A stretch of DNA of 64,000 nt. Origin: Octopus vulgaris. Lineage: Eukaryota. The notes under the pieces were generated by a model that was given only the letters and a program-made list of their open reading frames with translations, had not been told where the DNA came from and searched no databases. Shown piece after piece: positions 4,997 through 54,220 of the stretch; the stretch's first letter is position 1, and every line of letters starts with the position of its first letter. The DNA lies in the NCBI GenBank assembly GCA_951406725.2, contig OX597814.1, positions 13,144,001-13,208,000 of the forward strand, read 5' to 3'. A program made the translations under genes and the position numbers.

Positions 4997-5585
4997 TATT
5001 CATATATATATAAGTTCAGCAAAATTTAGATTCAGATGAATATGGTACTTAAGTTAAAGGCACCAGAATTTTGTATGGTATTATCCATATAAATCAAATG
5101 GGGTGATTGTAATAAAAATAAGCAACAAGGATATCCAAGGCAGTGTAGTACAATTGTTTCATACTACTTTCACGCTACTATATACATCTGTGAGCATATT
5201 TAATATATATAGATATGAATATACATAAGTTATATATGTGGACTTATATATGTGTATATTCATATTTACTTATATGTGAATATATTATATCCATACATAA
5301 CATGATGACGAAAATTACACCCTCTTATGTAAAAGTTCTGATAATAGATGCTTATTTGTTACTATAATTATCCCTTTTATATATATTAACTGTAGCATAT
5401 TTCACAGCAATATGTTTATAGTCCTACTCGTATTGACGTAGATTGAATATAGTGCTTTTTAATTGTAATAAAAAAAGTGTCGCAATCATTTCAGAAATGT
5501 GTTCTTTAAATCAAATTACCGAATATTACATTTTTTGTAAAGCGTAATATATTATAACTAAATGAATGGGAAATATTCCAGGAGT

Positions 5586-6030
5586 ATATTTAAGAGATGA
5601 GAAATTACGTACATTAATAACATTTGACGGATATTTGTCCTTATCTTGTTTCGGCTGATATACCCCCCAGCCTTCATTAGGTGTCTTGGGGAAATTTCAG
5701 GGATCTTGCGGAAAAATACCTTAGGTTCTCATTCCTAAGGTATTTTTCGATTGTTATTATTATTCAGGTCACTGCCTGCAATCGAACTCGGAATATTGGC
5801 GTTAGTAGCCCGCGCTCTTAACCACTACGCCCTATGCCCGTGGGCAATTATGGAGTGTATTTTATGGCTTATAAATCTAATATTTTCGTCTCCTTCTTAA
5901 TACCGGTTTCCATGTGCTACTCACATCTGCTTGGGTTATACGGATGTCCTGAATCCATATTTGGTGCGTGTTATCAATGAAAACAATTGACAATCAGCTA
6001 GCATTCCTGGTTGTATTAATAACACGCACC
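5586..6030 (-). mobile_element. Truncated, internally deleted PLE copy with tRNA-like segment and minimal HHR (family shared with 27119 and 52155)
   Basis: Minus strand: LITRTKYGFRTSV (PLE RT-like), DVSSTWKPVLR, tRNA-like 5765-5832, degenerate HHR 5645-5685; plus strand NQLAFLVVLITRT at ~5992-6030 inside a short inversion. Confidence 0.75.
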
Positions 6031-6375
6031 AACTGCTGTCGATATGCTCTTTTGTAACTCGACCACATTGCAGCTGAGACCATTCTATTTATATTGTTCA
6101 ATGCTCGTATAAGTTTGCTCTTCGTACTATGTTTAATGCGAAATTATTTTTTTAAAGAAACCATCCATCAAATGTATAAATTAGAGGGGTCAGTTGTGAA
6201 AATATTCACTATATGTTATTTTTAAATTTCTTTTTTCCACCTGTTTTTATTAATACTAAGTCTTCACTCTTGCAATATAAGATAATCCCGTCTCTTCAAA
6301 TGAAATTTCAATGAATTGACCAGATCAAATTGAAAATGAACCAACACTCTCCTACACTCTCTCGCTCATTAACTC

Positions 6376-18630: not shown

Positions 18631-18730
18631 NNNNNNNNNNNNNNNNNNNNNNNNNNNNNNNNNNNNNNNNNNNNNNNNNNNNNNNNNNNNNNNNNNNNNN
18701 NNNNNNNNNNNNNNNNNNNNNNNNNNNNNN
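18631..18730. other. Assembly gap (100 N)
   Basis: Run of n. Confidence 1.
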
Positions 18731-26199: not shown

Positions 26200-28170
<1,971 letters not shown>

Positions 28171-51793: not shown

Positions 51794-52154
51794 TACATTT
51801 AAATTCTTGAATTTGCAATTAAATAAGAATGAACTAATTACATAAATTTTGTACTGTTTATTGGAACTATAATATTGTCGTTTGGAAAGTATTTTCTCTC
51901 TCACTATATTTTTCGGATAAAATTTTCCTCTGCATGTAAAACTAATCTTTAACCTTAACGCCACAGAATGATTTCGATTACAATAATTTAAAAAGGATTA
52001 TCTGCTAAGAGAATACAATTACATTGTCTTTCATAGATCTTCTTTTTCGCCTAGTCTATTCATTCTCCTTAGTATTTTAATGCTCATTGTCTTTAATGTT
52101 ACTATGCTTCAACAACATGCATATGCAATTCATGCGTGGGTGTATATATTTTAC

Positions 52155-52364
52155 AGTTCTATATTTAAGAGATGAGGAATTATGTACCTTATTTACATTA
52201 TTTAAATTCGAGGGATATTTGTCCTCATCTTGTTCTTGTTTACACAACGTTTCGACTGATATGCCCTCCAGCCTTATTCAGGTGTCTTGGCGAAATTCCA
52301 AACCTGTGTTCTCATTCCTAAGGTATTTTTCGATGTTGCTGTTGTTATTATTATTATTGTAGTT

Positions 52365-52395
<31 letters not shown>

Positions 52396-52842
52396 TTGTT
52401 GATATTGCTGCTGCTTTTGTTGTTGCTGTTGCTGCAGTTGTTGTTGTTCAGTTCACTGCTCGGAATCTTGTGGTTAGTAGCCCGCGCTCATAACCACTAC
52501 GCCATTATGCCTGTGGGCAATTATGGAGTGAATTTTAGGGCATATAAATCTAATATTTTTCTGACCTTCCTTAATACCGGATCCAATATGCTGCTCATAT
52601 GTACACTCAGTCTGTTTAGGAGCTTGTTGTGTCCTGGCATGTGCTGCTTCTTTTAGTTTTCTTATTTTCCAGTGGTGTTGTGTCTATTATGGGTATTAAG
52701 GAAGGATAGAAAAATATTAGATTTATAAGTCCTAAAATTCACTCCATAATTGCGTAGTGGTTAAGAGCGCGGGGTACTAAACCCAAGATTCCGAGTTCGA
52801 TTCCAAGCAGTGATCTGAACACGGATAATAATAATAATAATG

Positions 52843-52885
<43 letters not shown>

Positions 52886-53045
52886 CAACGGCATCGAAAA
52901 TTAATAATAATAACATCGAAAAATTTTCGAGCACAGGTTAGAAAATTCCCCAAGACACCTGAAAAAGGCTGGAGGGTATATCAGCCGAAACTTTGTGTTA
53001 ACAAGAAGCAAGATGAGGACAAATATCCGTCGAATATAGATAATA
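52155..53045. mobile_element. Back-to-back inverted duplication of a PLE 3' unit [ORF C-terminus, tRNA-like, microsatellite, HHR]
   Basis: Minus strand HWKIRKLKEAAH../GHNKLLNRLSVHMSSILDPVLRK (52505-52676); tRNA-like 52450-52505 (-) and 52752-52818 (+); HHR-like 52242-52286 (-) and 52954-52999 (+). Confidence 0.85.
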
Positions 53046-53374
53046 TATTTAGTAGTGGTAAAAAGTACGCCAACTACTTTCCGACTAAATATTTCATATA
53101 CTTATAACACATTAAGAGATAAAATATATATATCTGCAAATGTTAATAAACATTACAAGACAATAATGTGATATCAAAAGCATGTAATGTTATACATTGC
53201 TAGAAATATTACGTTTTCTGTCTGTAGATTAACATACAAGGTGGCATAGAATTCAATTATCTTTTTATGAATATTGAATTTATAACTTATAATGTTATGA
53301 TAAAACATCATTCAAAGTACTCTCATGACAAACCTCTGAATTGTTTTGCCAATGAAATATATTCTTTTTTGAAA

Positions 53375-53650
53375 TGCCCGAAATTTTAGGGGACGGAGAG
53401 CCAGTTGATTACATCGATCCCTGTACGCATTTGGTTCTTAATTCATCGACCCCGAAAAGCAAAGTCAACCTCGGTGGAATTTGAACTCAGAACACAAAGA
53501 CAGGAGTGGCTGTGTGGTAAGTAGCTTGTTTACCAACCACATGGTTCCGGGTTCAGTCCCACTGCGTGGCATCTTGGACATGTGTCTTCTGCTATAGCCC
53601 CGGGCCGACCAATGCCTTGTGAGTGGATTTGGTAGACGGAAACTGAAAGA
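53375..53650. mobile_element. SINE family 2 fragment (-) fused to a truncated SINE family 1 5' part (+)
   Basis: 53430-53495 is the reverse complement of the family 2 core; 53501-53650 matches 53818-53968. Confidence 0.8.
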
Positions 53651-53737
53651 CGGAAACATATATATATATATATATGCCAAATTATTGTCGGAATGTTCAT
53701 ATCAAATCTGCCGTATTATAACAGAAATTAACTGAAC

Positions 53738-53817
<80 letters not shown>

Positions 53818-54220
53818 CAGGAGTGGCTGTGTGGTAAGTAGCTTGCTAACCAGCCACATGGTTCCGGGTTCAGTCCCACTGCGTGGTATCTTGGGCAAGT
53901 GTCTTCTGCTATAGCCCCGGGCCGACCAATGCCTTGTGAGTGGATTTGGTAGACGGAAACTGAAAGAAGCCTGTCGTATATATGTATATATATATATGTG
54001 TGTGCGTGTTTGTGTGTCTGTGTTTGTCCTCCTAGCATTGCTTGACAACCGATGCTGGTGTGTTTACGTCCCCGTCACTTAGCGGTTCGGCAAAAGAGAC
54101 CGATAGAATAAGTACTGGGCTTACAAAGAATAAGTCCCGGGGTCGATTTGCTCGACTAAAGGCGGTGCTCCAGCATGGCCGCAGTCAAATGACTGAAACA
54201 AGTAAAAGAGCAAAAGAGTA
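53818..54220 (+). mobile_element. Full-length tRNA-derived SINE family 1
   Basis: GGAGTGGCTGTGTGGTAAG (A box), GGGTTCAGTCC (B box), internal microsatellite, 3' GGCGGTGCTCCAGCATGGCCGCAGTCAAATGACTG and short tandem tail. Confidence 0.92.

Follow-up and report, generated by a model that had tools for sequence, protein, structure and literature searches.

A Penelope/Poseidon retroelement of Octopus vulgaris with a tRNA-like head, the putative Pol III start of its template RNA

A repeated unit in the window, which is the whole 64,000-nucleotide stretch of Octopus vulgaris DNA analysed here, is the pLTR of an autonomous Penelope/Poseidon element (PLE) that encodes a reverse transcriptase (RT) with a C-terminal GIY-YIG endonuclease. 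A tRNA-like head is integral to this element and fixed in the family, and is not an occasional insertion; the octopus element is a real PLE with a tRNA-like head, a variant not found in the literature searched. The head probably served as a Pol III start. By a narrow measure, we lean towards the fuller reading that the captured tRNA-type promoter was the putative Pol III start of the element's own full-length template RNA. Evenly balanced is the broadest claim, namely that an autonomous protein-coding retrotransposon switched to Pol III, with an RT-encoding RNA of 2.6 kb or longer purged of terminators, and served both as a LINE-like master and as the origin of thousands of SINE-like 5´-end copies.

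Three loci in the window (52153-53047, 5585-5930 and 27118-27965) each contain the unit, with five arms in all (Table 1; in unit positions, +1 is the base with which the tRNA-equivalent head begins). The initial annotation had described this sharing, and the parts were located by position at all three loci. Locus 52153-53047 is an inverted pair, in which the minus arm carries the ORF C-terminus (HWKIRKLKEAAH...DPVLR, frameshifted), the head, (CAA/CAG)n and the hammerhead, and the plus arm carries the last ORF codons, the head, (AAT)n and the hammerhead. Locus 5585-5930, on the minus strand, is ORF-linked; together with the ORF end it has the additional PLE peptide noticed earlier, an RT fragment (LITRTKYGFRTSV) at 5926-5978. 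The locus at 27118-27965 begins at head +3 and lacks the ORF, as had been reported, and a microsatellite and a foreign insert of about 200 nt lie between its head and its 3´ part. The A box, the CT-ACT-AA loop and the B box claimed for the unit were all found in the window copies; in the plus arm at 52750 a deletion lies immediately 5´ of the A box, and in the minus arm of 52153-53047 the B box is mostly lost. No intact hammerhead was found among the five window arms, each of which has a core or helix defect, so the hammerhead that had been put together as a consensus across arms stands as a family-level motif.

Table 1. Parts of the element at the three window loci.
Feature	Position	Strand
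pLTR 3´ part of inverted arm (unit +76 to +263), with family ORF start codon (52315-52313) and PLE tail	52153-52352	-
Minimal type I hammerhead motif, core mutated in inverted arm	52242-52286	-
Trinucleotide microsatellite between head and hammerhead part	52333-52449	-
tRNA-like head (unit -6 to about +75); A box 52494-52504; B box largely deleted	52450-52517	-
3´ UTR and PLE ORF C-terminus (GIY-YIG end; frameshifted; stop codon mutated)	52518-52690	-
Direct arm from unit -66: last ORF codons, stop 52726-52728, TATA-like motif 52724-52729, short UTR	52692-52748	+
tRNA-like head; A-box remnant 52750-52760 after deletion; B box 52793-52804	52749-52819	+
(AAT)n microsatellite	52823-52902	+
pLTR 3´ part (to +230); hammerhead motif 52954-52999, core mutated	52903-53047	+
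Second copy, unit -92 to +255; A box 5822-5832; B box 5778-5789; hammerhead partly deleted	5585-5930	-
RT fragments of the same PLE family: 5926-5978 minus (LITRTKYGFRTSV); 5989-6032 plus	5926-6032	.
Third copy, inverted arm (+93 to +262)	27118-27296	-
Third copy, head from +3, an example of a head-start copy	27298-27379	+
Third copy, 3´ part (+94 to +236); hammerhead core intact at 27867-27912, helices broken	27824-27965	+

The unit was recognised as a pLTR because a unit piece directly precedes the body in 10 of the 30 loci anchored at the ORF N-terminus. Membership in Penelope/Poseidon is by anatomy, with no tree against named clades. The RT domain matched RVT_1 at E 2.7e-6, which is under the Pfam cut-off; the endonuclease was read by eye from its VYSIPCSCG motif, and the protein gave no Pfam match to GIY-YIG. 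The protein has 2,989 homologs of PLE type, the best of which is 68% identical, and the PLE identity first proposed for the upstream sequence is thereby borne out. Recovery of a full-length autonomous PLE ending in the unit, suggested from the start as a check, yielded near-full-length natural copies (L312, L316 and L317) and a family consensus of 2,641 nt (2.64 kb) that encodes an 830-aa protein. Among the 150 top RT matches, no ORF is intact and the longest natural open frame has 569 aa.

The start codon of the ORF, an ATG at +108, lies within the pLTR about 110 nt past the 5´ end of the head, and the reading frame crosses the hammerhead (+137 to +182) into the body. The frame is open over the pLTR-body junction, natural copies included, and the N-terminal peptide of one homolog (P0003) matches the pLTR-encoded start by eye. 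A 9-nt repeat in the pLTR-encoded N-terminus (unit +215 to +235) varies by whole units in 33 of 34 arms, with the frame kept. Partial pLTR tandems and inverted 5´-truncated arms are present, as is expected of Penelope/Poseidon elements, and so is their optional tail of 30-40 bp, which arises from two RT start sites: the 3´ ends of copies peak at +236 (35) and +263 (36) among 182 arms. In PAc of Anolis, the ORF likewise starts in the hammerhead; its RT starts at two internal sites, located 111-118 nt inside the ORF, and requires the ORF's first 172 nt (PMC11167929). As PAc and the PLEs with minimal hammerheads are described in PMC11167929 and PMC4209133, the octopus element resembles them in its single ORF of RT and C-terminal GIY-YIG, its partial pLTR tandems with inverted arms, its ORF start at the hammerhead, its two RT start sites 27 nt apart that give rise to the tail, and its minimal type I hammerhead with palindromic helix III, located in the pLTR. 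Unlike these elements as described there, it has a tRNA-like A/B-box head at the RNA 5´ end and a sense strand without T4 runs.

The genome spans 2.8 Gb and is AT-rich with many microsatellites. The head 21-mer has 2,129 exact matches genome-wide and its reversed control has 0, so the observed unit is not a product of chance. The 3´ 20-mer (7,481 exact matches) and the UTR 21-mer directly 5´ of the head (897) likewise had controls of 0. Scaling the exact counts by the share of exact matches (23 of 104 for the head; 37 of 123 for the 3´ part) gives estimates of approximately 9,600 head arms and 25,000 3´ arms. Copies diverge from the column majority by 5.5-7%, and the PLE family is now dead. 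A set of near-identical copies on contig 1 at 7.9-9.1 Mb (L182, L184-L187 and L218), together with several contig 31 matches, look like segmental duplicates and not like recent transposition.

The head follows the UTR, in some cases with deletions, in 30/30 UTR-anchored loci, which include two window arms and five near-duplicates; the alternative raised at the outset, that an independent SINE had inserted into only some copies, is not upheld. Its A box at +8 and B box at +52 have tRNA spacing, as in the tRNA-like heads of tRNA-derived SINEs, and both boxes are intact in 75 of 162 arms. The head aligns end to end with host tRNAs, with best matches at z=6-9 against shuffles. The A/B pattern, which was written after the sequence was seen, matched 1 of 20,000 Markov shuffles and none of the 19 related PLE loci. 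The head does not form a cloverleaf fold; neither the window nor 29 family loci gave a tRNA call in ARAGORN, and Rfam returned no tRNA or hammerhead among the best 150 of 285 matches for the window, nor at E<=10 for one family copy (L177). No parent tRNA was identified: Arg-TCT/TCG was the best of 13 host sequences from seven amino-acid types, with a small margin and most isotypes unsampled. A standalone SINE with the same head and another tail was also rejected, since the downstream sequence shared among 31 arms without the 3´ part was judged by eye to be other repeats inserted into the microsatellite. Such repeats, some of them R4/Dong-like by their translated frames, repeatedly insert into the (AAT)n of the pLTR and split copies (window 27500-27700; L121, L188, L195, L240 and L242).

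The 5´ ends of copies pile up at the start of the head. Sample A comprised 92 arms at 90 loci, for which the head 21-mer was the sole criterion; the loci came from the first 100 places listed, which all lie on contig 1, and 91 arms were kept after removal of one without flanking homology. Sample B comprised 68 insertions picked by the 3´ 20-mer, in which the longest arm was read by hand. At -8 to +1, the rate of 5´ ends is 0.098 per base at risk in sample A (44 ends) and 0.117 in sample B (19 ends), 40-50 times the background of 0.002-0.003 per base in the ORF and at head +19 to 75 and +96 to 194 in two independent samples. Per base, the rate is 0.015-0.018 at +2 to +18; at the microsatellite, a site of insertion for other repeats, it is 0.012. 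In sample A, 21 arms end at +2 to +18, 51 at -17 to +1 (70 arms reach +1; ends called at -17 or -14 are fold-back arms resembling UTR) and 19 further upstream; in sample B, 6 of the 68 pass -20. Read depth (second organism) and contig depth (third run) step up at the head start, with loose ends at -5. The pile-up supports RNA starting at the head as the main template.

The exact start is indicated by a fold-back signature. Positions -6 to +4 form a hairpin, GCCC-AC-GGGC, and the last four bases of a cDNA ending at -6 or -7 could pair with its own sequence and be extended, which would not be open to a longer cDNA. The 84 head-start arms divide into 42 joined to an inverted arm elsewhere, 15 with a fold-back in the head and 27 joined to unrelated flank without inversion. 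The letters before -6 are of the fold-back type in 17 of the 29 head-start arms that keep -6 and of the genomic type in 10/10 ORF-linked arms; genome-wide, the fold-back junction has 1,782 strand matches versus 436 for the ORF-linked junction, the first pattern being looser and its matches mostly double-counted. Since this signature puts the end of the cDNA at -6/-7, the most likely first base of the template RNA is G-6, which lies 13 nt 5´ of the A box. RNase P cleavage at +1 was ruled out, as the acceptor stem is unpaired and ends extend to -6/-7.

Pol III read-through of the whole unit is favoured because the sense strand is free of T4 runs, control PLEs are not depleted of them, host tRNA loci mostly end in T4+ and 0/10 abutting upstream pLTRs start before +4. 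The 2,641-nt consensus contains 0 TTTT in its sense strand, compared with 4.6 expected from a base shuffle (P 0.007), 4.2 from a third-position model (P 0.006) and 2.5 from its own codon usage (P 0.049); the depletion amounts to one independent consensus. Seven long natural copies, which are not independent, have 9 T4 runs versus 33.5 expected. The controls show 41 runs versus 29.1 expected in eight PLE relatives from metagenomes and 32 versus 33.6 in 11 of 16 PLEs from genome bins, after exclusion of five short or near-duplicate loci. These 19 control PLEs together show no depletion, at an identity to the family of just 32-48%; one of them (852 nt) is likewise without a T4 run. By inspection, other retroelement frames in the genome show no obvious depletion, and a T4+ run lies within 26 nt downstream in 23 of 30 host tRNA loci. 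The start of the ORF within the pLTR and the lack of T4 in the sense strand are in keeping with the early suggestion that the unit may drive the one that follows it in tandem. No discrete RNA start was seen in three RNA-seq runs, of each of which about 6% was read; read directions are equal, and 83-84% of reads run into unlike sequence, a pattern expected from read-through of dead copies.

In the favoured mechanism, Pol III would start at the head of a tandem or pLTR-ORF master and read through the 2.6-kb unit, and the element's RT would start internally, at +236 or +263. A start at the first repeat would give short SINE-like copies and a start at a later repeat would give ORF-bearing copies, and the 5´ hairpin would allow the finished cDNA to fold back and prime the inverted arm. 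Several observations count against a full-length Pol III template. Translation of the 830-aa protein from an uncapped Pol III RNA is left unexplained. Pol III RNA has no cap, and the processivity of Pol III is held to set a limit on how long an element can be (PMC10886601). In viruses, ribozymes have been reported to induce cap-independent translation (PMC13725137), but in the octopus element the cut is 3´ of the ATG. Upstream copies at L297 and L307 reach -28 and -325, with other sequence between them and the body, and a TATA-like motif that starts at -34 also suits Pol II.

The best-surviving alternative, which we consider unlikely, is that Pol III made short RNAs alone from master pLTRs, as SINE-like by-products, and that full-length templates and mRNA came from Pol II read-through of tandem arrays. 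It draws on the same head and 5´-end evidence and removes the translation problem, and it accords with the upstream copies that reach into the ORF (L297 and L307) and with the 19 of 91 head-anchored arms that extend upstream. However, it accounts neither for the T4-free ORF nor for the absence of any start before +4 among the ten abutting upstream pLTRs.

Somewhat less likely again is a Pol II start at -6, set by the TATA-like motif at -34 or by another pLTR promoter, with the tRNA-like part as a captured passenger in the 5´ leader. The motif lies 28 nt 5´ of the inferred start and is kept in 73 of 86 ORF-linked arms, and PLE promoters are described as residing in the pLTR (PMC8557442, PMC11167929). 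A second hammerhead family, which lacks a tRNA head and contains about four T4 runs per unit, shows a similarly sharp edge, with 22 of 25 arms starting within -93 to -62 of the ribozyme; the PLE status of this family is inferred solely from the hammerhead and (TA)n flanks. Because this head-less family has such an edge, a sharp 5´ edge marks the end of an RNA and not the identity of the polymerase. Against Pol II, the coincidence of the start with the tRNA 5´ end would be chance, the T4 depletion would be unexplained, the TATA-like motif overlaps the stop codon in AT-rich sequence, and upstream TATA boxes serve Pol III genes too. The second hammerhead repeat (L330, L332, L339, L344, L347, L353 and L357-L376) is abundant, T-rich, about 200 nt long and (TA)n-flanked, with an initiator-like motif near its 5´ edge and no ORF link shown.

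It is quite improbable that the head contains no start site and that the hairpin at -6 to +4 stalled RT, or triggered fold-back on a longer RNA, as a truncation hot spot. Fold-back junctions are indeed common and ends are mildly raised near structure elsewhere, but the 27 uninverted joins to unrelated flank do not suit this explanation, the ends take in the entire hairpin instead of stopping at its 3´ foot, and the stronger hammerhead helix shows just 0.004 ends per base.

Least credible is an independent hammerhead-processed SINE or retrozyme lineage spreading from its own copies via PLE enzymes, as the initial annotation had envisaged: the unit is like a SINE in size and head, there are about four short copies to each ORF-linked one, and the class label is weakly clustered on a tree of 102 well-covered arms (26 label changes versus 33 when shuffled), but this tree is star-like and contains some loci fetched twice, 84 head-start and 87 ORF-linked arms are not told apart by any column at p<0.01, both classes contain the three main haplotypes, head-to-tail monomers have 1 exact match genome-wide, and no end peak lies at the hammerhead cut. 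By analogy with PAc, solo copies would end before the full protein-binding region, and they lack the upstream TATA-like motif; either shortfall could block their spreading.

The hammerhead core is intact in 65 of 129 arms, and core and helices together in 37; its polymorphic site is N7. Hammerhead-cut templates are not supported: ends at the ribozyme cut (0.0053 per base) do not rise to a peak over the surrounding rate of about 0.004 in 346 arms, and 3´ ends fall 60-85 nt past the cut. The hammerhead is a standard PLE part that is probably not needed to define copy ends. The minimal-hammerhead pattern has 15,775 matches genome-wide versus 295 for the control, and 57 of the first 100 belong to the tRNA-headed PLE family.

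The usual assumption is that an autonomous retrotransposon depends on Pol II, or on co-transcription by Pol I as in R2, and that Pol III marks SINEs and TRIMp3, which are non-autonomous. A PLE driven by Pol III, if true, would break this split, would open a direct route from an autonomous element to SINE-like repeats, and would supply a compact promoter that can be tested in a group of elements with few documented cases of transcription. Like tRNA-derived SINEs (SINE2), the short copies look like a tRNA head joined to a simple repeat and to a 3´ end common to an autonomous element; unlike them, they form no separate lineage with its own source copies and represent the 5´ part of the RNA of the autonomous element itself. 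Short pLTR copies can be mis-annotated as SINEs. Schistosoma SM-alpha carries promoter boxes. The octopus unit resembles SM-alpha and the metazoan non-LTR retrozymes, as presented in PMC8490949 and PMC7761336, in having a hammerhead in a short dispersed repeat for which PLE machinery is proposed or used. Unlike the retrozymes of these accounts, which are promoter-less, occur as hammerhead-delimited tandem monomers and are processed to circles, it has a promoter-like head, no tandem monomers beyond the one match and no excess of ends at the cut site. With the TRIMp3 elements Cassandra, Helenus and Ajax it shares a small-RNA-derived Pol III-type promoter, probably inserted, in the terminal repeat (PMC10886601). 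In that description, the three are LTR elements without coding capacity that measure 311-1,263 bp and carry PBS/PPT, unlike the octopus element, which encodes RT/EN and has pLTRs; their autonomous partners are argued to require Pol II (PMC10886601). No tRNA-headed or Pol III PLE was found in the literature searched; Repbase, Dfam, SINEBase and the repeat library of PMC13282606 lay outside the search, so a database entry may exist. A supplement of PMC13282606 gives no sequences for the motif.

A search with a distant RT for sister Poseidon families in the genome gave mostly this family's own places, the rows being partly checked, and no relatives were found among viral contigs. Poseidon-type PLEs with hammerheads occur in contigs labelled as bacterial genome bins (L407-L422) and are probably animal host contamination. 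Among the long open frames in the window are pieces of another PLE family, with a PYISTHNP motif, and of CR1/L2-like elements; a 100-base N gap lies beside a long microsatellite at 18631-18730. An abundant tRNA-type SINE at 53505-53655 and 53817-54200 of the window is unrelated to the PLE head, and the fetched loci hold at least two further SINE heads (e.g. in L023).
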